NCBI GenBank assembly: GCA_034520965.1
Contig: JAXHMY010000008.1
Span: 160,001 to 224,000 of the forward strand
DNA length: 64,000 bases
Direction: 5' to 3'
Origin: Spirochaetia bacterium
GTDB lineage: Bacteria; Spirochaetota; Spirochaetia; DSM-16054; Sediminispirochaetaceae
Below are positions 11,939 through 52,225 of this stretch, one piece after another. The position numbers and the translations under genes are program-made. The notes beneath the pieces were generated by a model. It was not told the DNA's origin, searched no databases, and worked only from the letters and a program-made list of their open reading frames with translations. The first letter of the stretch is position 1, and each line of letters starts with the position of its first letter.

Positions 11939-12940
11939 ATGGAGAATCAGGTGCTCTTGAGAGAATACGAAGATTTCCTCACTTCCGCGGCGCAGATTGC
12001 CCCCTTGAGCCGCGAGACCTATATGCGGGAGATCCGTTTCCTCTCTGAATGGTGCACTGAATCTGCATGCAGCTTGGAGCGCGTGCAGACACTCGAACTG
12101 CTCGATTTTATTACCCACCGTCGACAGGGTGGGGTTGATCACCGAACTCTGGCAAAAACGATCAGCGCCTTGCGCTCGTTTTTCAAATTCCTGTTGCAGG
12201 AAGAGTATCGGGCTGATAATCCCGCCGGGCAAATTGACTCGCCCCGCCGCTCGGCCCCCCTTCCGGATGTAATGACCCGTGAGGAAGTTGAGGCTTTCTT
12301 CAGGGCAATTCCACTTGATACCCATTATGGTCTGCGGGATCGTGCCCTTTTTGAAATAATTTATTCCTGCGGATTGAGAATCTCTGAGGCGGCACACTTA
12401 AAGATCGGTTCTCTCTTCTCGCTGAGGGAGTAGCCAGGGTGCACTGGAGAGGGCAACCGGGAGAGAATTGTCCCGGTCAGGGATCATGGTGTCTATTGGA
12501 TTAGGCAGTACCTGCAACGCTCCCGACCGCATATGTTAAAACGTGACCGGATTGAAGAGAGCCTGTTTCTGAGCATGCGAGGGACTGCTATTTCCAGGAA
12601 AGGAATTTGGAAGCGGTTTAAGCAGATATGTGAAAGGGCGGGAATTGAAGCCAAGGTACACACTTTGAGACACTCCTTCGCTACCCATCTGCTTCAGGGA
12701 GGAGCCGATTTACGCTCTGTACAGGCCCTTTTGGGGCATGCGGATATCGGAACCACACAGATCTATACCCATGTAGAGAATGAGGAGCTGCGGCAGGTAC
12801 ATGCTGCTTTACATCCGCGAGGTTCTGAAGCCCCGGGGCAAGGGACCCCTCTAGTACTACTAGGAGGTATACCCCATGATGCGTATAAAAGCGGTAGTAT
12901 TTCTAGTAGTTGTGGCGGCGATTGTGTTTACTGGTTGTAA
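11939..12940 (+). pseudogene. xerD: tyrosine recombinase XerD, interrupted as assembled (compensating -1/+1 indels near 12419 and 12442 create TAG 12431-12433; probably consensus error)
   Basis: RDRALFEIIYSCGLRISE in ORF 11939-12433; [12 protein letters not shown] and [16 protein letters not shown] in ORF 12533-12940 in the same frame; the shifted frame restores AEGVARV. Confidence 0.85.
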
Positions 12941-13604: not shown

Positions 13605-14583
13605 TATCCTTTCCATCGCCATAAGCCTCATAAAGGGCATTAAGCCCAGGGACCGCCTCTCATTGGGATTCTACTTCTCCTCTATAGAGGAATTTGAACA
13701 GACTAAACCCTTTGAAATGATACAGATGACCACAAAGGGGATTTCTTATAACAATCCTGCCAATGCCGAATTAGTGCGCCGAGCCCGGAAAATTGCCGAG
13801 GATGTGGAGCGTTCCGGAGCGCGGGCCGTCAGTTATTGGGACCGTGAATATCCGCCGTTACTGCGCGAAATGTACGATTCACCGTACATGCTGTATATAC
13901 GCGGGACCCTGCCGAAGCAGGACCGTCCGGCTGTTGCAATTGTGGGAACCCGTCATCCAAGCCCTGCAGGCCGTAAAGCCGCCTTTTCATTGGCGGCGGA
14001 ACTCGGATTGGCTGGCCTTCCGATTATCTCCGGCTTAGCCGCCGGTATTGATGCTGCAGCTCATTGGGGTACTCTCAAAACCCAGCAGCAGACTGTGGCG
14101 ATAATGGGAAATGGAATTGATAGGGTGTATCCCTCAAGTAATAGCGAGCTCGCTGGACGAATACTTCAAAATGGAGGGGCGCTGATCAGTGAATATCCTC
14201 CTTTCACTCCGGCCAGCCGATTCCGTTTTCCGGAACGGAACCGAATTATAAGTGGGATAGCCCGAGCACTGGTGGTTGTTCAGGCCCCTGAAAAATCGGG
14301 AGCTCTCATCACCGCTGATCATGCACTCGACCAAAACAAAGAAGTTTATGTGCATTCCGCCGGTACCTACGGCCGACGAGGGGCCGGCGCATTGCGGCTG
14401 TCGGGAGATGGCGGTATGCTGATTGAAAATGCAAAAAAAATACTTGATGCATGGCGGATACCGATGGACGAGTGCCTCGAGACATTACAACTGGACAGTT
14501 TCACCCCGAGCCAACGGCTTGAGGAAGAGCTGGATGGGCGTCTGCTGAGATTTGACGGCCTATGGTATCGGAGGGTTGGATGA
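13597..14583 (+). CDS. dprA: DNA-processing protein DprA (Smf)
   Basis: EYPPLLREMYDSP, VAIVGTR, IISGLAAGIDAAAH, FPERNRIISG, SGALITA. Confidence 0.95.
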   Translation: MADILSIAISLIKGIKPRDRLSLGFYFSSIEEFEQTKPFEMIQMTTKGISYNNPANAELVRRARKIAEDVERSGARAVSYWDREYPPLLREMYDSPYMLYIRGTLPKQDRPAVAIVGTRHPSPAGRKAAFSLAAELGLAGLPIISGLAAGIDAAAHWGTLKTQQQTVAIMGNGIDRVYPSSNSELAGRILQNGGALISEYPPFTPASRFRFPERNRIISGIARALVVVQAPEKSGALITADHALDQNKEVYVHSAGTYGRRGAGALRLSGDGGMLIENAKKILDAWRIPMDECLETLQLDSFTPSQRLEEELDGRLLRFDGLWYRRVG

Positions 14584-15479
14584 AACTGCAGGCAGTTTTA
14601 AAAGATTATATCCATTACCTTGAATCGGTTCGAGGGCTTTCGACTCATAGTATTCGTGCCTACCAAAGCGATCTTTCCCGCTTTGAGGGCTTTGTCAATG
14701 ACCGGGAGAGTGAGTGGACGCAGCTGCGGCCCGCCGATGTACGTGCCTTTGTGGGCAGCTTGCACCGTGAGAACCTGAGCGGAAGTTCGATTAATCGAGC
14801 TTTGTCGGCAGTAAAGGGTTTGTATCATTACGCCGTGCAGTTTGGGATAACTGCGGTTGATCCTTTTGAGCATATTAAAAGCAGCTCCAGTGGGAGGAGG
14901 CTTCCTCAGGTGCTGAGTGGAACCGAAGTAGATCAGTTGCTTGCTCTGCCCGACGATTCGTTTAACGGTTCCCGTGATCGAGCTTTGCTGGAACTCCTTT
15001 ATTCGACCGGGTGTCGTGTTGCAGAGATCTCGGCAATGGATATTTCGGATGTACAACGCGGAAGAAAATCTATCAGAGTACTTGGAAAAGGAAATAAAGA
15101 GCGCTATGTCTATGTAGGCCGGCCGGCTCAAGCAGCCCTGTCATATTATCTTGATATGCGCAGGCAGTATGTAACTCGGAATTCACTTGCTGAAACAGGG
15201 GCCCTGTTTATAAATTTAAAGGGTACCCGCCTAACTGCGCGTGGTATGGCTCTTATTATCAACAAATACATGCAGCGTAGTGGTATTTCAAAGAAGGTCT
15301 CACCCCACACCTTCCGTCATAGTTTTGCTACACACCTTCTCGATCAGGGCGCGGATATTCGTATGGTGCAGGAGATGCTCGGGCACTCAAGTGTGTCTAC
15401 CACGCAAATTTACACGCACGTGGGGCTAGAGAAGCTGAAAAAGGTTTATAGGGAGGCTCATCCACATGGAAAACGATAA
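14580..15479 (+). CDS. xerC: tyrosine recombinase XerC
   Basis: [53 protein letters not shown]; catalytic R-K-H-R-H-Y residues intact; upstream of hslV. Confidence 0.88.
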
Positions 15480-16011
15480 GAACTTTCATGGAACAACGAT
15501 TCTGGCAGTCCGCAAGGGAAATGAAGTAGCCATGGCCGGTGACGGTCAGGTGACCCTGGGCGAGACAGTTATGAAAGGGAACGCTCGCAAGGTACGGAGT
15601 ATGTATGACGGACAAATTTTAACCGGTTTTGCCGGTGCGACTGCCGATGCATTTACCCTGTTTGAGCGTTTTGAAGGGAAAGTAAAGGAATACAACGGCG
15701 ATATAACCCGTGCTGCAGTGGAATTAGCAAAGGAATGGCGTACCGACCGAATGCTGCGTAAACTGGAAGCTATGCTGCTGGTGGCCGATAAAAACAAGAC
15801 TTTGTTGATATCCGGCACCGGAGATGTAGTTGAACCGGAACGCGGAGTGATTTCGATCGGCTCCGGCGGCAATTATGCATATGCGGCGGCATTGGCTTAC
15901 CTGGATACTGCCGAATTGAGTGCTCGAGAGATAGTTGAACGAGCAATGAAGATTGCCGCCCACATTTGTATTTACACCAACGATCAATTTACTGTGGAGG
16001 AACTAAAATGA
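15466..16011 (+). CDS. hslV: ATP-dependent protease subunit HslV
   Basis: HGTTILAV (catalytic Thr), [23 protein letters not shown]. Confidence 0.97.
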
Positions 16012-17460
16012 TAGAGGCGTTGTTTTCACTCACACCAAAAGAAATAGTCAAAGCTTTAGATAAATATATTATCGGACAAGAGAAGGCCAAAAAGTCGGTA
16101 GCAATAGCCCTGCGTAATAGAGTACGGCGGCGTAATTTGCCGGATGACCTGCGGGACGAGGTTGCTCCGAAGAACATCATCATGATCGGTTCAACCGGAG
16201 TCGGCAAAACCGAGATCGCCCGCCGCCTTTCTAAACTCAGCGGTGCACCCTTTATCAAGGTAGAGGCTACAAAATACACAGAAGTAGGATACGTAGGGCG
16301 CGATGTTGAGTCGATGGTGCGCGACCTTATGAGCGTAGCCTTGTCGATGGTAAAGAGCGAAATGGCTGAAGATGTGCGTGAAGAAGCGGAAAAGCGCGCA
16401 GAGGAGTCTGTGCTGGACTTGCTGCTGCCGGGTGTGAAAAAAAGCGGCCGCAGCAGCGATAAGAAGGATCAATCCGTCGATGGAAACAGTAGTGCTTCAG
16501 CAGCTTCGGGGGCGGGACCTTCCGACGTGATCTATGTCGGCGACGGTACGGAAAACGGCTCCGAGAGGAGCTCCGACAGCGGCGGAACCACCCGTGAAAA
16601 ATTTAGAAAAATGCTGAGAGACGGAAAACTGGACGATAAAATGGTTGAGGTTGAAACCTCCGGGTCCAAGTCCCCTTCTATCTGAAGTTTTTTCCGGACA
16701 GAGCTTTGAAGAAATGAATATGAATTTCGGAAATCTTGGAAATATCTTTGGGGGGAACAAGAAAAAACGGCGGGTATCGGTTAAGAATGCCCGCGAAATT
16801 CTGCTGGACCAGGAAATGGATAAGTTGATTGACGACGAGAGTGCCGCGGATGTGGCCCGTGAGAGGGTTGAGCAGATGGGCATCATCTTTATCGACGAAA
16901 TTGATAAAGTGGCAGTGAAAGAAGGGCGCGGCGGAATGGATGTATCCCGCGAAGGGGTGCAGCGCGATATTCTGCCGATTGTAGAAGGCAGTAAAATCAA
17001 TACTAAATACGGACTGATCGATACCAGTCACATATTATTTATTGCAGCAGGTGCTTTTCACATGAGCAAGCCTTCGGATTTGATTCCGGAGCTGCAGGGG
17101 CGGTTTCCCCTGCGGGTAGAACTTGAAGACCTCTCTGATAAGGACTTTTTCCGTATTCTGACCGAACCGGAAAACGCCCTTACCAAACAGTACCGCGAGC
17201 TTTTGAAAACTGAAGGGGTTGAACTTGATTTTTCCGACGACTCCTTGAAGAGGATAAGTGAGATTGCCGCCGATGTGAATTCGAAGACCGAAAATATCGG
17301 TGCCCGTCGGTTGCAGACGATAATGGAGCTGCTGTTGGAGGATATATCTTTCAATGCTCCGGAGCTTGAGGGACAAAAAATACCGATTACTCCGGAGTAT
17401 GTGAATGAACGGCTGCAGGATATTGTGCAGGACCAGGATCTTTCGCGATATATTCTGTAA
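16008..17460 (+). pseudogene. hslU: ATP-dependent protease ATPase subunit HslU, split by a +1 insertion near 16683 as assembled (probably consensus error)
   Basis: Walker A GSTGVGKT and GYVG pore loop in the 5' ORF; Walker [15 protein letters not shown] and GARRL in the 3' ORF. Removing one base gives ...[11 protein letters not shown]... Confidence 0.9.
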
Positions 17461-40516: not shown

Positions 40517-41386
40517 ATGACGGATCAGGCTGAACAGTTGCGGGAGCTCATGAAAAACCGCACATCCGAAGAGGGTGGTTCCGAGAACAAAACCAGAATC
40601 ATTGCAATTGCCAGCGGGAAAGGCGGAGTCGGAAAGACAAATATTTCGATTAACCTGGCAATGGCCTATGCGCAACTGGGCAAGAAAGTAATTGTTATGG
40701 ATGCTGATCTCGGACTTGCCAATGTAAACGTAATACTTGGAATTATTCCCAAGTACAACCTGTACCACCTTATCCGCAAGCAAAAGCGGATGAGCGAAAT
40801 ACTGATGGATACCGAGTATGGTATACAAATAGTTGCGGGTGCCTCCGGTTTTTCAAAAATTGCCAATCTCACCGATGAGGAACGGGGCCATTTTATTGAG
40901 GAACTGTCTGCTCTATCTGATGCAGATATCATCATTATTGATACCAGCGCAGGGGTTTCGAGTAATGTGCTGGGCTTTATCGCGGCGGCGGATGATGCAA
41001 TTATTGTCACCACTCCTGAGCCTACCGCTATCACCGATGCGTATGGTATAATAAAGATTATAGCAACAGAAATAGAAAATATGGACTTAGGCTTAAAATT
41101 GATAGTAAATAGAGTGAAAAGTGTGACGGAAGGGCGTAAAATAGCAGAAAGGGTGATCAATATTGCCGGTCAGTTCTTGAATCTGAAGCTTGATTATCTG
41201 GGCTACGTATATGAAGATCAAGGAGTTGGTTCGGCGGTAATTCACCAGAAGCCGTTTATGGCATCCGAACCAAACGGTAAAGCCGCAATTTGCGTGCGTC
41301 ATATCGTGAGCCGGTTGGAAAACGTTGAGTATAAGGAAGGCAGCGGGGTCGGCAGCTTTTTGAAACGACTGTTAGGAAAGACTTAA
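40517..41386 (+). CDS. flhG: MinD-like ATPase FlhG
   Basis: DQAEQLR N-terminus, SGKGGVGKT, DADLGLAN, TPEPTAITDAY. Confidence 0.95.
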   Translation: MTDQAEQLRELMKNRTSEEGGSENKTRIIAIASGKGGVGKTNISINLAMAYAQLGKKVIVMDADLGLANVNVILGIIPKYNLYHLIRKQKRMSEILMDTEYGIQIVAGASGFSKIANLTDEERGHFIEELSALSDADIIIIDTSAGVSSNVLGFIAAADDAIIVTTPEPTAITDAYGIIKIIATEIENMDLGLKLIVNRVKSVTEGRKIAERVINIAGQFLNLKLDYLGYVYEDQGVGSAVIHQKPFMASEPNGKAAICVRHIVSRLENVEYKEGSGVGSFLKRLLGKT

Positions 41387-41389
41387 AAC

Positions 41390-41418
41390 TTGACGGTTTT
41401 GGAATATTCTCATAGTCT
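41390..41418 (+). promoter_or_regulatory. internal sigma70-like promoter for the flgV-fliA-fapA...cheA-like sub-operon
   Basis: TTGACG (41390-41395), 17-nt spacer, TAGTCT (41413-41418). Confidence 0.6.
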
Positions 41419-41442
41419 TTATGTAGGGGGACCGAGGCTTAT

Positions 41443-42183
41443 ATGCCTAATATAAAAGTTATTCTTTGGAGTGCCGGCAGTGCAGCTGTAATTGCTTTGC
41501 TTGCAGGACTGTTCGGTAGAGTCACTTTTTTTGACCTTCTTCTGAGGGTTTTACTTGGCGGAGCAGCATTTGGTCTGTTCGGCGCCGGGGTAAGCCTGTT
41601 GCTGATGCGCTTTGTTCCAGAACTGTTTGAACAGCAGGAATCGGAAGAGGACGGCTTTACGGCTGCGACCAGTGAGGCTGGAGAAAAAGAAGCTCCGGCA
41701 CAACAGGGGAATAATCTTAATATTGTCCTTGATGGGGATGAATACAGTTACGGGGACACCGCAGAGGCGACGGCTGAGAATGAAGTAGAGTCCGGTGATT
41801 TCGTGGAAGATGAAGAGCAGTTTGTAGAGGAAGTTTCGGAGTCGGAAGATCAAAGCGCATTGGGGAGGCAGACGGAAACCGGCACAGCACACAGAGCACA
41901 AGTCTCTTCCGACCCTGAGAGCAGTAGTGCGGAGAAACCAGCCGCTGCTTCCGCGGACTATCAGGAGTTCGAAAACTTAGCTGATGTAGACACACTGCCC
42001 GATTTAGATGAGTTTTCCGACTCATTTGAAAGTGTAGCTGCAGCTCAAGACTCAGAAAATGAATCTAATGGAGGAGGGGGGTACTCTTCTACGGATTCGG
42101 TAGATATAATGGGGGATGAACAGGATCCGGCCACAGTTGCCAAGGCGGTTCGTACTATTATAGGAAGAGACCAAGAAGGATAA
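41443..42183 (+). CDS. flgV: FlgV-like flagellar membrane protein (2 TM helices, acidic disordered linker, C-terminal helix)
   Basis: Architecture and position right after flhF-flhG match FlgV described in Borrelia; the call rests on synteny and architecture only. Confidence 0.6.
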   Translation: MPNIKVILWSAGSAAVIALLAGLFGRVTFFDLLLRVLLGGAAFGLFGAGVSLLLMRFVPELFEQQESEEDGFTAATSEAGEKEAPAQQGNNLNIVLDGDEYSYGDTAEATAENEVESGDFVEDEEQFVEEVSESEDQSALGRQTETGTAHRAQVSSDPESSSAEKPAAASADYQEFENLADVDTLPDLDEFSDSFESVAAAQDSENESNGGGGYSSTDSVDIMGDEQDPATVAKAVRTIIGRDQEG

Positions 42184-42186
42184 AGT

Positions 42187-42975
42187 ATGGGGGAGAAACT
42201 GTTAGAGGAGAAGACAGAAGAAGAACTCTGGGAATTGTACAGAAAAAATCAAGATCCCAAAATTCGCGATATGTTTGTCAAGCAGTACGCACCCTTGGTG
42301 AAGTATGTTGCCGGCAAGGTGGCAGTAGGAATGCCGCATAACGTTGACTTTGACGATCTGGTAGGGTTCGGAGTCTTTGGTTTGATCGATGCCATCAATA
42401 AATACGATCCGGATAAACACGTGAAGTTCAAAACCTATGCTGTCACACGTATTCGTGGAGCTATCTTTGATGAACTGCGGTCTATAGACTGGGTGCCCCG
42501 GTCGGTAAGACAAAAATCACGTGAAATTGAAGATACAGTCCATCACCTCGAGGCATCCTTGGGACGTGCGGCAACTGATAAAGAGATAGCTGCGGAACTG
42601 GGCATGTCGGAGAGCGATTTTCAGAAGACTATGATGAAGATCAGTGGTACTTCTATTCTTTCGCTGAACGATGTATGGTACACCAGCGAAGAAAACGATA
42701 GTATTTCTATAGTCGACAGTATAGAATCGCCCCAGAGTCTGAATCCTGATACAATTGTAGAGAAAGAAGAAATAAAGAGGGTGATTGTTCAGGCTATCGA
42801 TGAGCTTCCTGAGAAAGAGAAAAAAGTGCTGGTTCTGTATTACTACGAGGATCTTACTCTTAAGGAAATCGGTAAAGTGCTGGAAGTCACTGAATCGCGG
42901 ATTAGTCAACTGCATACAAAGGCAATTATTCGTCTTCGTTCAAAACTGACCAATATTAAAAAGGGGATTTTTTAG
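42187..42975 (+). CDS. fliA: RNA polymerase sigma28 factor (FliA/WhiG family)
   Basis: [58 protein letters not shown]. Confidence 0.96.
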
Positions 42976-42993
42976 TTACCGTGGGAGGCCGAA

Positions 42994-44955
42994 GTGGTTG
43001 AAATTGCCAAACTGAGAGAGTTTATGCGGACTCAGGCAGAAGAAGACCGCAAGAGTCGCTGGGTGCAGGTCGAGGGTGAAGACCTCGATGAAGCCTTGCG
43101 TCAGGCTGCGATTGAGCTTTCCCTTCCAATAAAAAAGATAGAATACGAAATTCGCGATCCCGGTAAAAAAGGAACCTTTGGAATCGGCCGGACAAACTGT
43201 GTGATAGTAGCTTACCCGGCAATTGATCCGGCCCAACTTCAACTGACTGAAGATTCCCTTGAAATGGGTTCGGGTATGGAACAGGGTGAAGATCAAGATA
43301 AAGACGGAGAGGCTATTGTGCGGCTTTTCCCCGAAGGGGTGTTCCTAAAGGTGATACCGCCGGTTGGGAACGGAGCTCACGCCACTGAAAGACAAGTCTA
43401 TGCCAAGGTAAAAGAGCGGGACATTGAACGCTATGATAAACAGTTGATCCAGAAAATTGTCAAGGCCGCCGATAACCGCTATATAAAAATTGGCGACTTT
43501 GATTACAATCCTGCCAACGATTCAATTATTACCGTCGATATTACAGATTTCGATATGAAGGCGTTTATAATCTGCAAACCGCCCACTAAGAATGGAGCAG
43601 ATCCAAATTTTGACGGGCTGCTTGGCTTTCTCAAAACAAACGGTGTGGTATTTGGAATCAAGGAAGAGCCTCTACGAAAGTTTGTAGACTTTCCCAAGTA
43701 CAATGAGACAGTTTTAGTGGCAGAGGGAACCGCCCCGGTAAATGGGAATGATGCCCGAATTATTTATAATTTTGAAACCGATCGTTCAAAAATTAAGCTG
43801 AAGGAAAAGAACGGACGGGTAGATTTTAAGGAATCAAATGTAATCCAGAATGTGGTTGAAGGTCAGGCGTTAGCAAAGAAGATTCCTCCCGGTGAAGGCC
43901 AACCCGGCCGAACGGTAACCGGGAAGCTTCTGCCTGCGAAAGACGGCAATGATGTGAAGTTTGAAATAGGCAAGAACGTTCATCTGTCGGACGACGGAAT
44001 TACTGCAGTGGCTTCTATCAATGGCCAGGTGATGTTGGCAAACAGCAAAATCAGTGTGGAACCGGTTTTAGTAGTTCCGGGAGATGTAAACTTGAAAACC
44101 GGTGGTAATGTCATTTTCTTGGGTACGGTAATCGTCAAAGGTAATGTCGAGGACGGTTTTAAGGTGCAAGCTGCCGGAAATATTGAAATTATGGGAAATG
44201 TAGGGAAGAGCGAGTTGGATGCCGAGGGCGATGTAATCGTGCATCAAGGAATAACCGGAAAAGGCGAAGGGTTCGTACGGGCCGGGCGAGGAGTGTGGTC
44301 AAAGTTCATCGAAAACGCTCGGATTGAATCGGGTGACCTGGTGGTTGCCTCCGATGGAATTATTAACTCTAGGGTGAGCGCTAATCATCGAATTATCTGC
44401 CAGGGAAAGCGTGCAACTATTGTAGGCGGGCATCTGCGGGCAGCTGAAGAGATCCATGCGAAAACTTTGGGGTCGGTGGCAGGCTCAGAAACAGTGCTCG
44501 AAGTAGGTTACGATCCAAACAGCAAACAGCGCTTATATGATCTCAATACTCGAAATGAAGAAATTGAAGAGCAGCTTGATAAGATTATGCAGGATATGGC
44601 TACCATAAAAAAACTAAAAGAGAAAAGCGGTAAAAAGCTGTCGAAGGAAAAACTTGCGTATCTTAAAGAGATTACCGAAAAGAAGTCCGCCATCGAGCAG
44701 GAAAAGCAAGAGAAACAGGAAGAGATCGATGAACTGCAGCACTACCTATCGTCTTTGAAGGTAAAGGGACGGATATCAGCCTCTGAACGGGTGTTCAGTG
44801 GAGTCAAGCTCAGCATCAAAGAAGCTGCTTTAGAAGTAAGAAATGAATATAAATCAGTTACTTTTGTGAACGAGAAGGACGATATAAAAGTAACGAAATA
44901 CATTCAACCTGAGGAGGACTATTCGAGGCCGAACAATGCCGCTTCAACCGATTGA
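42994..44955 (+). CDS. fapA: FapA (DUF342) family protein with an N-terminal Jag_N-like domain
   Basis: EGEDLDEAL...IEYEIRDPGKKGTFGIG (Jag_N-like); GDVNLKTGGNVIFLGTVIVKGNV beta-helix repeats; C-terminal coiled coil. Confidence 0.85.
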   Translation: MVEIAKLREFMRTQAEEDRKSRWVQVEGEDLDEALRQAAIELSLPIKKIEYEIRDPGKKGTFGIGRTNCVIVAYPAIDPAQLQLTEDSLEMGSGMEQGEDQDKDGEAIVRLFPEGVFLKVIPPVGNGAHATERQVYAKVKERDIERYDKQLIQKIVKAADNRYIKIGDFDYNPANDSIITVDITDFDMKAFIICKPPTKNGADPNFDGLLGFLKTNGVVFGIKEEPLRKFVDFPKYNETVLVAEGTAPVNGNDARIIYNFETDRSKIKLKEKNGRVDFKESNVIQNVVEGQALAKKIPPGEGQPGRTVTGKLLPAKDGNDVKFEIGKNVHLSDDGITAVASINGQVMLANSKISVEPVLVVPGDVNLKTGGNVIFLGTVIVKGNVEDGFKVQAAGNIEIMGNVGKSELDAEGDVIVHQGITGKGEGFVRAGRGVWSKFIENARIESGDLVVASDGIINSRVSANHRIICQGKRATIVGGHLRAAEEIHAKTLGSVAGSETVLEVGYDPNSKQRLYDLNTRNEEIEEQLDKIMQDMATIKKLKEKSGKKLSKEKLAYLKEITEKKSAIEQEKQEKQEEIDELQHYLSSLKVKGRISASERVFSGVKLSIKEAALEVRNEYKSVTFVNEKDDIKVTKYIQPEEDYSRPNNAASTD

Positions 44956-45265
44956 TTTACAGGTATTATTTGCTCATATTAATCAAGTAGGAAAACAGCA
45001 GGCAGTGCTGAAAGAGGCTTCAGTGGTGCAGCAGGGTCTCCGCGGGGCGGAGCTTGCCAAACAGACGCGACAGAATGCTGAATCAGTGAGGCAAACTGAA
45101 GAAGTACCGGAGGAAAGTACACAAATACGGGAAAAGCAGTCTGAGGGAGGCGACCTCACGCATGAAGAGGCCGGAGGGGAAGAGTCTGAGCAGTCGGAAG
45201 AGAAGAGGAAAAAGCACTATTTCGAGGATCCTGCCTTAGGAAAAAACATCGATATATCGGGATAA
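44936..45265 (+). CDS. hypothetical protein of flagellar clusters
   Basis: MPLQPIDLQ N-terminus and DPALGKNIDISG C-terminus, a pattern I recall downstream of DUF342 genes; overlaps the fapA stop. Confidence 0.7.
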   Translation: MPLQPIDLQVLFAHINQVGKQQAVLKEASVVQQGLRGAELAKQTRQNAESVRQTEEVPEESTQIREKQSEGGDLTHEEAGGEESEQSEEKRKKHYFEDPALGKNIDISG

Positions 45266-45268
45266 CAT

Positions 45269-45868
45269 ATGTATATTACTTCAATCATGGTGAGCACCGG
45301 AATAAGTATAATGATAGCAGGGATAGTATATATACTGCTGGTAAAAAGAATAAACAGAGAAAAGTCGAGTACTGCAATAACAGAACAGGTAAGAAACGAA
45401 ATAGATCGTATGGTTGTAGATTTGAATCAAACCGCCGACAGAAATATTGGATTGATCGAACAGCAACTCAAATCATTGACGGAGATGATTCAAGAGGCTG
45501 ATCATAGGATTTCTCTACTTCAAAAACATTCGGAAAAACTGAACAGAAGCACTGATACTTATAATCAGATTCGTCCTGCCCAGATAGTGAAACCAAAGGC
45601 AACTCCAGAACCAAAAGCATCACCAGCTCCACAGGCCAGTGAAGTCTCTCCACCAAATTCTCATACTGTGGATATTTCTGAGAAAATACAGCCCAGCACC
45701 TCCGTTTCGGAGAGCGAGGATGCACAGGATTCAGTGACGACCTCAAAACGTGAGCGTGTAATCAACCTCCATCGACAGGGAATTTCACTTGATATTATCG
45801 CTTCCAGGGTTGGTTCTACTGTAGCTGAGGTAGAGCTGATTATATCAATGACAGAGGGCCACCGATGA
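45269..45868 (+). CDS. SwrB/DUF2802/DUF6115-like protein (TM, coiled coil, C-terminal HTH-like motif)
   Basis: N-terminal TM helix; C-terminal VINLHRQGISLDIIASRVGSTVAEVELII; downstream of sigma28, like swrB after sigD. Confidence 0.65.
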   Translation: MYITSIMVSTGISIMIAGIVYILLVKRINREKSSTAITEQVRNEIDRMVVDLNQTADRNIGLIEQQLKSLTEMIQEADHRISLLQKHSEKLNRSTDTYNQIRPAQIVKPKATPEPKASPAPQASEVSPPNSHTVDISEKIQPSTSVSESEDAQDSVTTSKRERVINLHRQGISLDIIASRVGSTVAEVELIISMTEGHR

Positions 45869-47562
45869 GCCGAATAATAGGGATAGATCTAGGCACCACA
45901 AATACTGCCGCTGCCTTTATGGATGATGATACTCCTCGTATAATACCTAATGATCGCGGTAAAATGCTAACCCCCTCAGTGGTAGCTTTAACTGATTCGG
46001 GGGAGCTTTTAGTTGGAGAAGCTGCGAAGAACCAGGCGATGGTGAATGCCGAGGGTACAATAAGTTCTATCAAGCGTCTAATCGGAAAAAAGACGGAAGT
46101 AAAACTGCGGAATCGGTCATTTTCACCACAGGAGATAAGTGCGGAAATACTCAAAAAAGTGCGGCGGGATTGTGAAGCATATATGGGGGAGGAAATACGG
46201 GATGTTGTTATTTCGGTGCCCGCATATTTTAATGAGCTTCAGCGAAAGGCCACCCAGGAAGCTGGGCGTTTAGCAGGATTAAGAGTTCATCGCATAATCA
46301 ATGAGCCCACCGCTGCTTCCCTGGCCTACGCATCTCAGATACATACTCGTAAGAATATTTTAGTGTATGATATTGGTGGTGGAACCTTTGACGCAACCGT
46401 ACTTACCAGTGATGGAAGCAATTTTGAAGTCCTGGCAAGCAACGGCAATAATCAGTTAGGCGGAATCGATTTTGATGCATTGCTGTTTCAGCAAATCTCC
46501 GAACCCTTTAATCAGCAGGCAGGCTTTAGTGTGACTGAAGATCCATTTCTGCGTCAGCAGCTGCTCGACCAGGTTGAAAGGGCTAAAATTGAACTATCCG
46601 AAAGGGACACTGCCGCAGTCGCTCTGCCGTTTATCGATGTAGATCGTACACCGATACATCTGCACTACACTGTACAGCGGCAAGAGTTCAACAAACTCAT
46701 TTATCCGTTGATTGAAAAGACTATCGCCCTGAGCCGTGAAGCGGTTCACGATTCAAAAGTTGCGATCGATACCCTCATTTTTAGCGGCGGTTCCAGTAGA
46801 ATCCCGCTCATCTCCCATTTAATGAACGAGCTCCTACAAGTACGTCCCCAGGCTAAGGTGAACCCCGATGAAGTTGTAGCCCTTGGAACAGCGGTGCACG
46901 CCTCCATACTGACCACCAATTCTACTGTGCAGCGAAGCCGGCTTCATTCACTGAAAGATGTCACTCCCTTGCCCTTAGGGGTTGAAATCGAAGGTGAAAG
47001 GTTTTTGCCGGTAGTCGAGAAGAATGCTCCCCTCCCGGCAGAAAGGAAACAGTTGTTCACCACGGTAGCCGATGGTCAGCAGAGTGTCGCGGTGCATATC
47101 CTCCAGGGAGAGAGCCAATCTGCTGTGGAAAACGTCTCTTTAGGACGTTTCCTTCTTTCCGGAATCAAAAAGATGGAGAGGGGGGCGGCAAAGATCGAGG
47201 TAGTGTTTAAGATTGATCTTGATGGATTGTTAAAGGTAGTTGCCCGGGATATAGATACCGGGATCGAAAAAAATGTCACGATCGACCGGGAAAGTGACTC
47301 CTCAAATACGGTATCCGAAGATGAACACTTCGAAAAACTCAAGAATTTGATACGTCGGACTGATACTTTAATCGAAATGGTCCCGGCGGACACCGCTCCT
47401 GCTTTTATTAAAGAGGTAAATGCAATACTTTCTGCTGCGCGTAAGGCTGCTGCGGACTCTCCAATTGAAGTACTGCGTCAGTACCAGGTTGCACTAGAAG
47501 CGGTTTTAGCCGAGATCCACGAACTTTTAAAAGAGCAGGAGGTTCAATGTGGAAGAGCTTAG
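45865..47562 (+). CDS. atypical Hsp70/DnaK-family chaperone
   Basis: IGIDLGTTN, TPSVVA, VPAYF, INEPTAA, YDIGGGTFD, GGSSRIP, DVTPLPLG, HILQGE; only 565 aa. Confidence 0.93.
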   Translation: MSRIIGIDLGTTNTAAAFMDDDTPRIIPNDRGKMLTPSVVALTDSGELLVGEAAKNQAMVNAEGTISSIKRLIGKKTEVKLRNRSFSPQEISAEILKKVRRDCEAYMGEEIRDVVISVPAYFNELQRKATQEAGRLAGLRVHRIINEPTAASLAYASQIHTRKNILVYDIGGGTFDATVLTSDGSNFEVLASNGNNQLGGIDFDALLFQQISEPFNQQAGFSVTEDPFLRQQLLDQVERAKIELSERDTAAVALPFIDVDRTPIHLHYTVQRQEFNKLIYPLIEKTIALSREAVHDSKVAIDTLIFSGGSSRIPLISHLMNELLQVRPQAKVNPDEVVALGTAVHASILTTNSTVQRSRLHSLKDVTPLPLGVEIEGERFLPVVEKNAPLPAERKQLFTTVADGQQSVAVHILQGESQSAVENVSLGRFLLSGIKKMERGAAKIEVVFKIDLDGLLKVVARDIDTGIEKNVTIDRESDSSNTVSEDEHFEKLKNLIRRTDTLIEMVPADTAPAFIKEVNAILSAARKAAADSPIEVLRQYQVALEAVLAEIHELLKEQEVQCGRA

Positions 47563-48193
47563 GTACTACCGTGCATTAGGTCTTCCTGCAGGGGCAGATG
47601 CCGGACAAATAAAATCTGCCTACCGGGTTCTGGCAAAAAAGTACCATCCTGATATGAGTAAAGATCCAGCTACGGGTGATGAGTTTAGAAAAGTTGCGGC
47701 CGCCTATAAAACTCTCCTCGCTCGCGAGGAGAAACGAAGTTACCTTGATTCAACTGTACGGCGTACATATAGAACGTCCCCGATACGGCCGGCCACACAG
47801 CCTTCTACGGGGGAGGCAAAAAAATCAATTTACGAGATTGGCCAACTCCTTCTGAGGGGAAAAACGGCGAGTATGCGTGCCTTTGCGGCGAGGCGTCTGG
47901 GTTTTTCTCAACAGAAAGGAGCTTATGTATATCTGCGGAAGTCTTTACAGGACCCTTCCGAGGCGGTAGTTCTTGCTGCTGTCGAGGCAATCGGCCGTCT
48001 ACGGGTGAGCATCTCCGCTGAAGAGCTTGAAGCTCTGTTTGAAGGTAGTTCAAGGCCGGTAAAATTGGCAATACTCCAAACTGTCGAAATGTGTGGTACA
48101 AAAAATGTTTTTCTCGGAATACTCGTCAAAGGAATGCAATCTTTAGACCGCAAAGTTCGCAGCAAGTCTTTGTCCCTGTTTTCACAAATTTGA
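47549..48193 (+). CDS. J-domain protein with C-terminal HEAT-like repeats (class C JDP)
   Basis: YYRALGL...IKSAYRVLAKKYHPD; HEAT/PBS-like RAFAARRLG, LQDPSEAVVLAAVEAIGRL, DRKVRSK. Confidence 0.88.
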   Translation: MEELRYYRALGLPAGADAGQIKSAYRVLAKKYHPDMSKDPATGDEFRKVAAAYKTLLAREEKRSYLDSTVRRTYRTSPIRPATQPSTGEAKKSIYEIGQLLLRGKTASMRAFAARRLGFSQQKGAYVYLRKSLQDPSEAVVLAAVEAIGRLRVSISAEELEALFEGSSRPVKLAILQTVEMCGTKNVFLGILVKGMQSLDRKVRSKSLSLFSQI

Positions 48194-48206
48194 AAGGAGT
48201 CTCGTA

Positions 48207-50144
48207 ATGGTAAAAGATAATCAAAACTCTCTGTTTCACTCCTTTCTGCGAGACAGCGAGGGTTTCATTAAAGGGCTCAATCGCAGTCTTCTGGCCCTGG
48301 AACAGAATCCAAGGGATCCAAGCCACATTGATGAGCTGTTTCGAAATGCTCACTCCTTAAAATCTGAAGCTGATTATCTCAATCAAACGGAAATTGCAGC
48401 TGAAGCCCATCAGATAGAAAGCGCTATACAGAATATTCGAGATCATTCTGAAGCGCCGAACCGTCGTCAATTTGATGCTTTTTTTTCCAGTGTAGATAAG
48501 GTTCAGGAGATGCTGGGCCAATTGCGACAGCATCGTATGCAAAGCAAGGGTCAAAGCAAGAACAAAGCTCAGGATGCTGCCGGGGATGAACTGCACTACA
48601 AAGCTGCGACAGGTTCAGAAAACGGGCCGAAGGGCTCCCAGGAACCCTTGATGCCGATCCTCAGTGATTTTGAGAAATCCCTGCTGCGGGAGTCAAGAAA
48701 AAGAGAGGAGCGCTTTTTCCGGGTGTATGTAGAGCTCTCGGATCAAGCTGAACTTCCATATGCCAAAGCCTACCTTATCTTGAGTAATCTGGAACAGCTG
48801 GTTCAAGTAATTCACAGGGAACCCCAATTTGGTGCGGCGGCAGAGAATGAGGACCCAAAGCGCTTTCTGCGGCTTATGTTTTTCTGTACGGGCAAGCTCC
48901 CTGAAAGTGAATTGTACCGGGCGGTAAATATTGATCAAATAAAAAAAATTAGCATCTCGCCGCTGGACTACAAAAGTGTGTTGGGTGAACAGGTTCAGAA
49001 AAGAGGCAGCCTCGATTTTACGAATGAACTGCAGGTGCACATAAACGGAGGTGATCTGGACGAGCTCAACGGCTATGTGGACGAACTGAAGATCAGGGCC
49101 CATCGCCTGAAACGTGAGCTATCCGCAAGCTTCGGCAAAGAAAGCGAGCACCTTTCCCTGTTCACTCGGCTAGTAGATGATCTTGAAGCATTTAGCCATA
49201 GAATCAGCCTGGTACAGCTTGATGATGCCCTGCAGCCACACTACCGGCTAGTTCGTGACCTGGCAAGTTCCCTGGATAAAGAGGTTGAACTGCATCTTGA
49301 ACACTGCAATATTACCCTGGACCGCCGGGCAGCAGAGCTTATATCTGAAATTCTCGTCCACCTGGTGCGTAATGCGGTGAGTCACGGCATTGAAAAACCG
49401 ATAGAGCGGGCGCAGAAGGGAAAGGCCTCTCTGGGTAGAATCACCATTGCCGCCGAAAAAGCGGATGAGCAGATCCGCATAACAGTTGCCGATGACGGTT
49501 CAGGTATTGACGAGGAAGGACTGAAACAGCAGGCTCGTAAAGCGGGTATAGAGACTGAGAGTAATGAGCTGCTTTCATATTTAGTGTATCCGGGTCTCTC
49601 AACACTCTCTGAGGCGGACTCCCGTGCCGGTCGCGGATATGGTTTGGATTTAGTCTACCAAAAATTACAAGAGTTTGAGGGGGGAACACTGGAGGTTGCT
49701 TCCCACCCCGGGCTTGGGACCAGTTTTATAATGACCTTGCCGGCGGGCTTTTCAATACTCTCCCTGTTGGTGATACGATATGAGAATAAATTGGTAGCAA
49801 TACCGGCTAAGTATGTGGAGTCGCAGATAGAATTGAAAAGCGGCACGTTTTCCTCCGGTAAAAATGGAGAGTTATTCTGGAACGAATTACCGGTATTTAA
49901 CCCGGAGGGGCAGCTTTTCTATACCGATACATATCCTCCTCAAAGCCTTGGGCTTGTCATCTCCTATCTAAAATATAAAGTCCTTGTATTAGTAGACGAG
50001 ATGCTCTTTCACAAGGAAGTTGCCGAGGAGAGCATCACCCTGTATATTGCGGGCAGTCTTCATTTGCATAAGATGAGTCTGTATAATACGGAATCCGAAC
50101 TCTATTATTTGAGTCCTTCCATTGCCGTAACCGGCTCTCTATAG
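48207..50144 (+). CDS. divergent orphan CheA-like histidine kinase (HPt, P2, P3, HATPase, degenerate CheW-like)
   Basis: ELFRNAHSLKS (phospho-His), HLVRNAVSHG (N box), DDGSGID (G1), PGLST, GRGYGLD (G2), GTSFIMTLP; AAGGAG RBS. Confidence 0.88.
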   Translation: MVKDNQNSLFHSFLRDSEGFIKGLNRSLLALEQNPRDPSHIDELFRNAHSLKSEADYLNQTEIAAEAHQIESAIQNIRDHSEAPNRRQFDAFFSSVDKVQEMLGQLRQHRMQSKGQSKNKAQDAAGDELHYKAATGSENGPKGSQEPLMPILSDFEKSLLRESRKREERFFRVYVELSDQAELPYAKAYLILSNLEQLVQVIHREPQFGAAAENEDPKRFLRLMFFCTGKLPESELYRAVNIDQIKKISISPLDYKSVLGEQVQKRGSLDFTNELQVHINGGDLDELNGYVDELKIRAHRLKRELSASFGKESEHLSLFTRLVDDLEAFSHRISLVQLDDALQPHYRLVRDLASSLDKEVELHLEHCNITLDRRAAELISEILVHLVRNAVSHGIEKPIERAQKGKASLGRITIAAEKADEQIRITVADDGSGIDEEGLKQQARKAGIETESNELLSYLVYPGLSTLSEADSRAGRGYGLDLVYQKLQEFEGGTLEVASHPGLGTSFIMTLPAGFSILSLLVIRYENKLVAIPAKYVESQIELKSGTFSSGKNGELFWNELPVFNPEGQLFYTDTYPPQSLGLVISYLKYKVLVLVDEMLFHKEVAEESITLYIAGSLHLHKMSLYNTESELYYLSPSIAVTGSL

Positions 50145-50164
50145 TGCCTGAGCAGTGCGTGGGC

Positions 50165-50209
50165 AAAAAAAAACGGTATGCTTCTGGACGTTTCAAAAAG
50201 CATACCGTT
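50165..50209 (-). terminator. intrinsic terminator on the - strand
   Basis: Perfect 12-bp stem AACGGTATGCTT (50172-50183) / AAGCATACCGTT (50198-50209), with a 9-nt U-tract on the - strand (A-run 50165-50173). Confidence 0.8.
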
Positions 50210-50240
50210 AAATAAATTAAAAAGGCTATTATTCTAATAA

Positions 50241-50266
50241 GAAAATAGCCGTATCCGGCTATTTTC
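50241..50266. terminator. perfect 11-bp hairpin; possible bidirectional terminator or sRNA stem
   Basis: GAAAATAGCCG-TATC-CGGCTATTTTC between the convergent cheA-like and maf genes. Confidence 0.6.
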
Positions 50267-50320
50267 GTCGTTTCGGTTGTCGCACAGCGGCATCCGAAAC
50301 TAGTTAATGCCCTATTTATC

Positions 50321-50347
50321 ATTTCGGTAACAGTGAGGCATTCTTTA
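50321..50347 (-). promoter_or_regulatory. sigma28-like promoter
   Basis: The - strand reads TAAA-gaatgcctcactgtt (15 nt)-ACCGAAAT, versus the consensus TAAA-N15-GCCGATAA. Confidence 0.55.
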
Positions 50348-50401
50348 ATAATTTTGTATAAAAAGTGCGAAAGGATTTAAGTGCTACCGGTTCTGCAGCC
50401 T

Positions 50402-52225
50402 CTACTTGCTGTTACTAAATACTTCTATATGGAACTTCGCCGAATCTAAGAGGTGCTGATAAACCCGTTGGGAACTTTGTAGGTTTTCTTGTAGATTTTG
50501 GCTGGATGATAATTCATCTTGGATCTGCTCAAGTACGGGGTTAATCAAAAATCCGACTACATGACGGCTTGCGGAGAGCAGCAGTTTTTGATCCAGAGTA
50601 TCCAGGGTATACAACGTTTCCTGGATTTTGGAGCGACTCAGCTGGTCATCGGAATAGCCTTCAACTCCGGCTATTACCCGTAAACCTTGTTGTGCAATGC
50701 TTTTCAGGCTGTGAAGTTCTTCGATAAGAGAATTGATCCGCCCCTGCAGCTGTTCTGCTCTTTTTTTTTGGTCCCGCTGCTGTTGAGCGGTATATAATTG
50801 AAGAGCGCGATCTATTTGCCGATCAATTACAGGACGGGATGGTGGGAGTTTCAGCAGCTGAGATATTGTGGCCAATTGTATCCCCGGTATTTTTACTCCC
50901 TTTGGCGAAAGGGTAAAAGTGCTGCCCGAGTCCTTTGCTATCTGTTCTTCAAACCACTGTCGATATATAATAAGCCGCCGGTCGGTTAAAGTAAGGCCGC
51001 CGCCGTAGTTTTCGTGGTAGAAGGGATCGCCGCTATGAAGGTAGTTAAAAATAAGTCCTTCGTAAGGCCTGAAGCGGTACGAGTGAGTAAACAGCAACTG
51101 TTCGAAAAAGCTGCCGCAATAGTGGGTCCGTTTTTCCGGAAAACCCAAGTCTAAACCGCTTAAATATATTTCATCGGCACCTATGTAGCGAGCAAAGTCC
51201 CAGGCGGTAGTGGTAACTGAACCACCGGCTCCCAACTTATGGGCTGCCTCATCTCCCGGCTCCAGGTATCCCCCGAGGGGAAACACCGAGCCGCTGAAAA
51301 AAACAGCCCGGTAAGAATTTTGAAAAACCCGAGAATGAGTGGCGGATTCTGAAATAAGAATGGTTGCTTGTAAATCAAGTCCATCGAGATGGCGGGTGTT
51401 CCAGTACTGGGGGTCAACTACAAGGGTAAAGTCGGGGGTAACTCCATTGCGCAAAAGGGCTCGCAATGAGGTGTCTGTAGCGATTAAAACCATCCGTTGC
51501 TGCAGCTGCTTCAAATCGGGAAGCACTGCATCCAGAGTCGGCCCGGCCGCAATGACCAGAGCCGGTATTCCCCGAAGGAGATCCCTAAGCTGATTCAAGT
51601 TTCCAGCCATAGCCATTGTGTCCAGGTTTTGAGCGAGATTACGAATCCATCTACGTCCGAAACGCTTCACGGTGGTACTGTTCACTCTCTTTCGTGATCG
51701 CTCGGCTTCAACGATGCTGTGAGCAAGGGAGTAATAATCGGGAGCGGTCTGTGTAATCGGCAGCAGAGGGATAACCGCATGGTTTCTGCTGATCAGTGGC
51801 GAGAGAGCTGCTCTCAAATCCGTGACTCCCAGCCCAATGAGCAACGAGGTCTTTTCGTTGAACAGAGACGTATAGTCACGGGCTGTGAGGGCTTTCAGAA
51901 AAAGTTCGGGGCTCTGCTCAACAATAATTGCCTCGCCCTGGGGAAACCTGCGAAAAAACTCCTCAATTTGATAACCAAGGCCAAAACCAAAAAAGATACA
52001 GGCCGGCGTAAGAGGCTCACTATTGTTATCAAGCAGACGTGCCGCTTCCCTGCACGGATTATGCTTTGAATGGATCCATCGGCCCTCAAGTTGTGCGGTA
52101 GCTGCGTGCTGTGCCGATACGCCGATAGATAAACTTTCCGACGGATGGAATCGTGCAAAAACTTCTGTACTTAGTTTAGGAAACAGCTGTACCAGATGCC
52201 TGCGGTTCTGTTCAAAGAAGTTCAT
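50402..52225 (-). CDS. motility-associated factor (Maf / MAF_flag10 / DUF115) putative flagellin glycosyltransferase
   Basis: IHSKHNPCREA, FGFGLGYQ, AAGPTLD, TPDFTLVVDPQ, GGSVTTTAW, IYLSGLDLGF..THY. Confidence 0.85.
   Translation of the reverse strand: MNFFEQNRRHLVQLFPKLSTEVFARFHPSESLSIGVSAQHAATAQLEGRWIHSKHNPCREAARLLDNNSEPLTPACIFFGFGLGYQIEEFFRRFPQGEAIIVEQSPELFLKALTARDYTSLFNEKTSLLIGLGVTDLRAALSPLISRNHAVIPLLPITQTAPDYYSLAHSIVEAERSRKRVNSTTVKRFGRRWIRNLAQNLDTMAMAGNLNQLRDLLRGIPALVIAAGPTLDAVLPDLKQLQQRMVLIATDTSLRALLRNGVTPDFTLVVDPQYWNTRHLDGLDLQATILISESATHSRVFQNSYRAVFFSGSVFPLGGYLEPGDEAAHKLGAGGSVTTTAWDFARYIGADEIYLSGLDLGFPEKRTHYCGSFFEQLLFTHSYRFRPYEGLIFNYLHSGDPFYHENYGGGLTLTDRRLIIYRQWFEEQIAKDSGSTFTLSPKGVKIPGIQLATISQLLKLPPSRPVIDRQIDRALQLYTAQQQRDQKKRAEQLQGRINSLIEELHSLKSIAQQGLRVIAGVEGYSDDQLSRSKIQETLYTLDTLDQKLLLSASRHVVGFLINPVLEQIQDELSSSQNLQENLQSSQRVYQHLLDSAKFHIEVFSNSK

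Follow-up and report, generated by a model that had tools for sequence, protein, structure and literature searches.

The flagellar superoperon of a spirochete of the family Sediminispirochaetaceae (GenBank assembly GCA_034520965.1) ends in three genes that encode an Hsp70, a J-domain protein with HEAT repeats (J-HEAT) and a CheA-like kinase, here called the tail CheA or tail kinase. The window in which they lie is a stretch of 64,000 nucleotides (positions 160,001 to 224,000 of contig JAXHMY010000008.1), and positions are counted from its first letter unless a contig or locus is named. Here, I argue that the three genes belong to two separable modules, an account that I regard as slightly better than even: a lid-tethered Hsp70/J-HEAT pair that would grip one motility protein, and a CheA, free of receptor arrays, that would act on an orphan CheY encoded next to prfB. 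Both modules, the Hsp70/J-HEAT pair and the CheA-CheY pair, are undescribed in the literature searched, subscription papers and the contents of figures having been out of reach.

Within the window the superoperon runs from flgC to fliA-fapA-yjfB and a gene for a protein with a transmembrane segment and a helix-turn-helix (TM/HTH), followed by hsp70, the J-HEAT gene and the cheA-like gene:

45269..45868, + strand: TM/HTH gene (SwrB-like, DUF6115-like), whose stop overlaps the hsp70 ATG
45865-47562, + strand: hsp70, 565 amino acids (aa), intact ATP motifs, degenerate linker
47317..47556, + strand: Hsp70 lid, three-helix bundle (residues 485-564), predicted HEAT docking site
47549-48193, + strand: J-HEAT gene, 214 aa, GTG start, GCAGGAGG upstream
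48194-48199, + strand: AAGGAG ribosome-binding site of the kinase gene
48207-50144, + strand: cheA-like (tail CheA) gene, 645 aa
50241-50265: 11-bp hairpin between the kinase gene and a convergent maf-like gene, likely a terminator (-15.5 kcal/mol, 50240-50275)

The first-pass annotation of this DNA had pointed to the tight coupling of these genes, and the coordinates of the open reading frames (ORFs) bear it out: the ATG of hsp70 at 45865 overlaps the TGA of the TM/HTH gene (ATGA), the J-HEAT gene overlaps hsp70 by 14 nucleotides, and 13 nucleotides holding the AAGGAG separate its stop from the kinase ATG. Nor is a terminator visible from fliA to 50144, as had been stated: the five + strand candidates (5-8 pairs) in a scan of 41000-51000 all lie within coding sequence. 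Pfam matches HSP70 in the Hsp70, DnaJ and HEAT_2 in the J-protein, and Hpt, P2 and HATPase_c in the kinase. The reported lack of grpE, hrcA and a class A dnaJ beside the Hsp70, and of cheW, cheY, cheR, cheB and a gene for a methyl-accepting chemotaxis protein (MCP) beside the kinase, is confirmed. The canonical genes are found elsewhere in the source genome, as expected, namely grpE-dnaK-dnaJ on contig C1 (G000:C1:400418-404372), three ordinary che loci and 17 MCP hits over the cut-off.

The separability of the modules emerges from their distribution in one draw of 301 genomes of the class. With the kinase scored at E <= 1e-93 (117 genomes; G485, an ordinary CheA, removed, G406 and G407 unverified) and J-HEAT by a full-length match or confirmed synteny (69 genomes), both are present in 58 genomes, the kinase only in 59, J-HEAT only in 11 and neither in 173. 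Loci cut by contig ends (L035, L043, L187, L188, L189, L269) were not counted as losses; a chance HEAT hit (L268, genome G459) and an F2 locus (L249) were excluded, and an Hsp70 C-terminal profile (E <= 2.2e-54, 51 matches), which missed divergent or truncated orthologues found by synteny, was kept out of the count. The kinase follows the swrB-like TM/HTH gene with no chaperone gene in all 21 of the 59 kinase-only genomes checked, directly in 16 and after a cheW in 5. As to the 11 J-HEAT-only genomes, the locus holds a His-less kinase in 7, a divergent His-bearing one in 1 and none in 3; the chaperone pair stands without a kinase in L038, L039, L253 and L261. No neighbouring gene, CheA included, strictly co-occurs with the pair. 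The states of presence and absence are interleaved on a FapA tree with a weakly supported backbone, fitting repeated loss. Because one is often lost while the other stays, pair and kinase are likely two separate add-ons to motility, not one chaperone-gated switch.

Where the three genes do occur together their order is stable. The order hsp70-jdp-cheA (jdp being the J-protein gene) is found in 19/19 of the first loci from relatives and in 18/20, 20/20 and 10/10 of the larger stretches picked by a J-protein or Hsp70 match, all of these being selected loci; the two exceptions are a stretch that starts inside hsp70 and one with a 221-aa Hsp70. Sediminispirochaeta smaragdinae and Spirochaeta africana are cultured, free-living carriers of the trio. 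Of the synteny foreseen for the trio, the order is thus kept across Spirochaetota, but joint occurrence is not, as the counts above attest. Profiles were needed to follow the genes: a single-protein search of the phylum reached only 3/300 other genomes, and a contig scan with the J-protein gave full-length relatives at 2/80 loci, the rest being ordinary J-domains. Among 251 genomes of other classes of the phylum, the seven weak HEAT hits are all J-HEAT genes, with an Hsp70 directly upstream in 6 and the TM/HTH gene before that Hsp70 in 5/6; one locus reads hsp70-jdp-cheW-cheA-cheY (L364), another jdp-cheW-cheR-cheA (L367). Since these loci share the layout, the arrangement is old in Spirochaetota. 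The TM/HTH gene is the constant upstream neighbour of the flagellar Hsp70 or of the tail kinase. The ratio of nonsynonymous to synonymous substitution rates (dN/dS) is 0.05-0.10 for hsp70, J-HEAT and the kinase against two close relatives; where it could be computed for 15 other locus pairs it is 0.03-0.27. All three genes are thus under purifying selection. That the trio consists of decaying leftovers riding in a conserved operon, as many independent losses and truncations and long branches might suggest, is extremely improbable in view of these ratios in all computable pairs, of invariant catalytic residues (see below), of the reach into other classes, and of insertions in the Borrelia gene bb0264 that are listed with an intermediate infectivity phenotype (PMC3485029, in its Table 3).

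These distributions bear on the proposal made when the locus was first read, namely that the adjacent CheA is folded or gated by the pair, which would give the motor a chaperone-controlled, receptor-independent input. The genes are indeed adjacent, overlapping or closely spaced in 58/301 genomes, they stand together in another class as well (L364), the degenerate P5 domain of the kinase is predicted to keep its fold and, with its distinctive pattern, could have acquired a new binding partner, and a paper on StkA of Myxococcus xanthus presents it in its title as an Hsp70-like protein that regulates Dif signalling from upstream (PMC4319316). Yet, of the 21 loci checked that lack chaperones, 16 have a kinase with the same degenerate P5; in 11 loci of the studied class and 4 of another, the pair has no kinase beside it or one without the His; and the most conserved C-terminal residue of HEAT is assigned by the model to the lid. 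Overall, I consider the proposal, even as a facultative link, rather improbable. Neither the adjacent CheA as defining client nor its gating by chaperones is supported: all 21 chaperone-less genomes checked have the kinase, the pair can stand with no kinase or beside a His-less one (7 loci, family f91), and HEAT, the presumed holder of the client, is predicted to lie on the Hsp70's own lid. What is supported is a kinase likely uncoupled from receptors, by loss of a P5 motif.

The first module rests on a peculiar Hsp70. It carries the ATP motifs DLGTT, K70, EPTAA, DxGGGTFD and GGSSR (window sequence; invariant columns in 37 rows) and scores 487 bits with Pfam HSP70. It is not the housekeeping DnaK: it falls below the DnaK equivalog cut-offs (526 < 648, 512 < 823), a tree sets 28 flagellar Hsp70s, 3 Borreliaceae among them, apart from 20 other Hsp70s on one side of a branch with support 100, and the true grpE-dnaK-dnaJ lies on contig C1. 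The HscA cut-offs are not reached either (428 < 709, 425 < 620), and its linker reads HSLKDV vs VLLLDV in the source genome's own DnaK. A beta-sandwich substrate-binding domain is modelled, with strands at 362-471 and best Foldseek matches to DnaK (TM-score 0.77-0.80); a disordered linker (474-483) and a three-helix bundle follow in the model (predicted local distance difference test, pLDDT, 87.7), with no long DnaK-type lid bearing an acidic tail. At two positions of the arch over the peptide pocket, equivalent to M404 and A429 of E. coli DnaK, flagellar Hsp70s have E or D in 43/61 and V or I in 56/61 (10 not parsed), residues that suggest a narrower client; the arch of the window Hsp70 bears an acidic one. 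In seven loci (L037, L253, L256-L260) the ATPase domain is deleted and pocket and lid are retained, as proteins of 200-285 aa encoded directly after the TM/HTH gene, and in L250-L252 the ATPase is decayed, not deleted. The latter lineage has a hybrid sensor kinase (SBP_bac_3, HisKA, HATPase, receiver) after the tail CheA (L250:2234-4348, L251, L252), and in family f94 the housekeeping grpE-dnaK lies two or three genes past the tail kinase (L177:1-1737, L178:1-1875).

The partner protein has a J-domain with HPD at residues 6-65 (Pfam DnaJ 61 bits; HPD invariant in 35/35 aligned) and HEAT repeats at about 99-214. Its 214 residues hold no glycine/phenylalanine-rich (G/F) region, zinc finger or DnaJ C-terminal domains and match the DnaJ and HEAT families only; by its sequence it is a class C J-domain protein, and the original reading of the two genes as a dedicated Hsp70/class C pair attached to the flagellar operon is supported. 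A basic-flanked [ILVFY]xFP motif, reminiscent of the DIF motifs of DnaJ, follows the J-domain in 29/65 J-HEAT linkers (e.g. L026, L035, L155), though not in that of the window protein.

Of the seven ATPase-less loci, four have lost the J-domain and retain only HEAT, which is never the case where the ATPase is complete. Because lid and HEAT are kept together without the ATPase, and lost together in Borreliaceae, a contact between them was predicted. The complex of the two proteins, whose modelling had been proposed at the outset, was modelled with Hsp70 residues 362-565 and J-HEAT residues 90-214 against 3 controls: the model docks HEAT on the three-helix lid with a score of 0.71 vs 0.00 for the best control, the runs agreeing in at least 96% of contacts and the partners having a pLDDT of at least 87. 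The score mark is reached by 116/157 solved and 2/215 mismatched pairs, rates that are rough here, own alignments having been used. The predicted interface places lid residues 513-553 on HEAT residues 189-214, the last repeat; among its residues E550 is conserved in 68/68 and R204 in 66/68, with L544, in the same helix as E550, in 67/68. A sequence search of the PDB matched the HEAT part to engineered repeat proteins or constructs only (21 hits) and the lid to nothing, and no similar natural lid-HEAT complex was found that way; the lid alone, run against longer proteins, matched 9 of the Hsp70 family (205-565 aa), with lid and HEAT fused in none, which is weak evidence. As modelled, the lid is likely a docking site for the HEAT domain of the J-protein.

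A more conventional pair of the HscA/HscB kind, in which HEAT binds a flagellar client for delivery to the Hsp70 and the modelled lid contact is short-lived or an artefact, seems quite unlikely. Class C J-proteins do usually bind clients through their non-J part (HscB-IscU, AtcJ-AtcC; according to the accessible text of PMC6715715), and the first HEAT repeats (RAFAAxxLG) are conserved outside the predicted interface; against this weigh the co-loss of lid and HEAT in Borreliaceae, their co-retention without ATPase and J-domain, and a complex model that passes on conserved residues. Client capture and a lid tether are, moreover, not mutually exclusive.

The second module starts from the tail kinase, which is not truncated: its model has the P3 helices (281-333) and a full-length P5 fold, and matches CheA P3-P5 structures (E 5e-24). 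P1 has His49 in H-S-L-K-S-E-A with a Pfam Hpt match, and the N, G1, F and G2 boxes of P4 are conserved. His49, N389, D429-G431 and G477-G479, as well as the P2 residues L190, L195 and E196, are invariant in 26/26 tail kinases. HSxKSE, in which the Gly of the canonical HTxKG is replaced, occurs in P1 of 65/85 tail kinases vs H[TS]xKG in 36/38 other CheAs. At E 0.01 neither Pfam CheW (PF01584) nor H-kinase_dim matches the window kinase, whereas CheW, that is P5, matches the three other CheAs of the source genome, those of its ordinary che loci. The motif VIKP..FSG of P5, which I take to form the CheW interface, separates two kinds of tail kinase: cheW precedes the kinase in 11 loci, with cheY after it in 10 of these (L258 is cut), and the motif is present in 10/10 complete cheW/cheY-flanked kinases vs 0/72 others, the cut kinases of L037, L041 and L258 being left out. 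The window kinase keeps the P5 fold in its model and has lost VIKP..FSG..LGDG, a loss that makes it likely array-uncoupled and free of receptors. One genus has a chemoreceptor with a zinc-binding CZB domain after the tail kinase (L171:1178-3484, L180).

The tail kinase descends from a cheW-cheA-cheY cassette; the cassette and the CheY are probably F1-like. In a full-length tree, 19/19 tail kinases tested, intact and degenerate, fall on one side of a branch (Shimodaira-Hasegawa-like approximate likelihood ratio test, 99.8), and the 13 degenerate ones tested form one clade with support 100. The intact ones adjoin F2 CheA in a P3-P4 tree (0.785), and the trees place tail kinases and tail-type CheYs apart from F2. 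This FastTree tree, from P3-P4 only, split the tail kinases through long branches, and the full-length tree joined them. End branches are about 0.3-1.0 in tail kinases vs about 0.2-0.5 in F2 CheA.

In L168 and L262-L267 both the P1 His and the ATP lid of the tail CheA are lost, but the protein persists, at 541-626 aa, beside intact chaperones. Such forms, kept at a dN/dS of 0.20 for L264/L266, invite the explanation that the kinase serves above all as a scaffold or a sink for phosphate and not as a catalyst, P2 sequestering CheY and P1 taking phosphate back, with the chaperone pair separate. The invariant P2 residues, the replaced Gly of P1 and the longer end branches agree with it, but His49 and the P4 residues listed above are just as invariant, HSxKSE is common to intact, cheW-flanked kinases, and the prfB-linked CheY was not found in His-less genomes, so that I deem a sink improbable.

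An acting kinase would find its partner in an orphan CheY encoded directly behind prfB, in conserved synteny (G000:C2:235179-235574; L310:2180-2575, - strand). A tail-CheY profile gives it 142 bits in the source genome vs 105 for the next hit; it groups with the tail CheYs (94/95) and retains D53 and K103. Across the 301 genomes, with the prfB-type CheY counted at E <= 2e-29, kinase and CheY are both present in 113, the kinase only in 4, the CheY only in 9 and neither in 175. Linkage to prfB holds for 30/30 of the best and 18/20 of the weaker CheY hits, the two others being ordinary cheA-cheX-cheY loci in genomes with a His-less kinase. On these sequence comparisons it is a candidate response regulator of the tail kinase. 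That it is a relocated tail CheY was considered and dropped, genomes with an intact cassette carrying both CheYs. The best local match to a tail-CheW profile, at only 106 bits, is an orphan cheW (G000:C8:150060-150560) about 10 kb before the window, amid non-chemotaxis genes.

J-proteins are held to find their Hsp70 by means of the J-domain, with clients bound by the remainder of the protein. In the two-module account, J-HEAT would instead be clipped by its HEAT repeats onto the Hsp70 lid, forming a standing private pair, and the tether would keep the J-domain on the flagellar Hsp70 and away from the housekeeping DnaK. The peptide pocket, retained even without the ATPase, may grip a fixed client, one that is perhaps encoded in the late-flagellar fliA-fapA-yjfB-swrB block, the likeliest source. 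The kinase, with neither CheW nor receptors to control it, would run at a slow, unregulated rate and set the baseline, or buffer the phosphate, of the prfB-linked CheY. A bolder form, possible but doubtful, holds that an ancient Hsp70 lid became a J-HEAT dock, yielding a clamp that is complete in itself, holds one protein of the flagellum or the chemosensory system and works without ATPase and J-domain, and that the array-free CheA and the prfB-linked CheY are a second receptor-independent motor input in free-living spirochetes.

Several points weigh against the two-module account. The late-flagellar client is a guess from gene position alone. The complex-model score is a prediction and no measurement, 7/44 blind neighbour pairs pass the same test (the tool's own figure), and L255 retains J-HEAT with no Hsp70 at the locus. 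In another class, too, chaperone and che genes are neighbours (L364, L367), as would be expected from an old functional link. The cheW/cheY-flanked loci of the studied class form one clade and the genomes are kin, so that the P5 contrast of 10/10 vs 0/72 amounts to few events. A tail kinase without His or ATP lid is kept in the seven loci of family f91, hence catalysis is not its sole value. Because both CheYs co-occur in intact-cassette genomes, the prfB-linked CheY is a paralogue and not the relocated partner; kinase and prfB-linked CheY may both be mere markers of free-living lineages, again among kin genomes.

A case in point for the conservation of the Hsp70 concerns Borrelia, in which BB0264/DnaK-1 is the orthologue of the window Hsp70. 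The flagellar hsp70 of Borreliaceae lies four genes after flgV, in the same position (flgV-fapA-yjfB-TM/HTH-hsp70, then a convergent lepB), and falls in one clade with the window Hsp70 (support 100); its protein cluster is named Borreliella Hsp70, 489 aa. It differs in having 485-489 aa and no lid, and in standing alongside neither J-HEAT nor a tail CheA: the lid is missing in 3/3 Borreliaceae Hsp70s checked, and J-HEAT was found in 0/31 Borreliaceae genomes. In the accessible text of PMC11607428, flgV is bb0268, fapA is bb0267, and bb0264 is the last gene of the flgB superoperon, co-transcribed with bb0268. The belief that nothing of the kind had been described therefore holds for the module in the literature searched but not for the position of its Hsp70 gene. 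Hsp70, DnaK, bb0264, CheA and DnaJ have no match in the text supplements of that paper. BB0264 is named dnaK-1 in the supplement of PMC3485029, and its insertions are viable; no mechanism for it was found in the accessible passages.

Among known systems, HscA/HscB is similar in that a specialised Hsp70 is co-encoded with a class C J-protein (HscB-IscU-HscA; PMC6715715, in the part accessible), with no adjacent GrpE. The window Hsp70, however, scores below the HscA cut-offs, HEAT repeats replace the C-domain of HscB and are predicted to sit on the chaperone lid, ATPase-less forms persist, and a co-encoded client is putative at best. In the AtcJ-AtcC-AtcB system of Shewanella, a class C J-protein of an operon binds an operon neighbour through its C-terminus at 7 nM (same source, same limit), but AtcJ uses the housekeeping DnaK and a 21-residue tail, while the window locus has a private Hsp70 and a HEAT domain. 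The tail kinase shares the order P1-P2-P3-P4-P5 with five-domain CheAs (Thermotoga, E. coli, spirochete F2) and differs by HSxKSE in P1, the missing Pfam CheW hit and a locus without cheW, cheY or MCP. HscC with DjlB-DjlC is a further comparable Hsp70/J pair. In the set of Berry et al. (PMC10542144, accessible text) HMMER detected a CheW domain in all CheAs; the tail CheA departs from that description because it has no HMMER-detectable CheW domain. M. xanthus StkA, judged by its title (PMC4319316), likewise ties an Hsp70-like protein to a motility and chemosensory pathway, though in another phylum and another pathway.

Other observations concern neighbouring genes. A Maf/PseD-like flagellin-modification gene (50402-52225, - strand) is convergent with the end of the operon; many loci have it as their next gene, whether the chaperones are there or not. 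An hslU-like gene (15966-17460) is split into two overlapping ORFs of 239 and 271 aa in different frames, by a frameshift or an assembly error. A XerD-like ORF (11939-12433) has 164 aa only and seems to end short of its catalytic part; a full XerC-like gene lies at 14562-15479.

To sum up, a HEAT domain docked on the lid, if true, would be another way of fixing an Hsp70/J pairing, and the survival of lid and HEAT without the ATPase, if true, would be a case of an Hsp70 turning into a static adaptor. CheAs of a branch without a detectable CheW domain occur in more than one third of the genomes sampled from the class, and a candidate response regulator goes with them. Along the same line, a lid tether would frame a testable role for Borrelia DnaK-1, whose mutant is viable and is listed with an intermediate infectivity phenotype (PMC3485029, as tabulated there).

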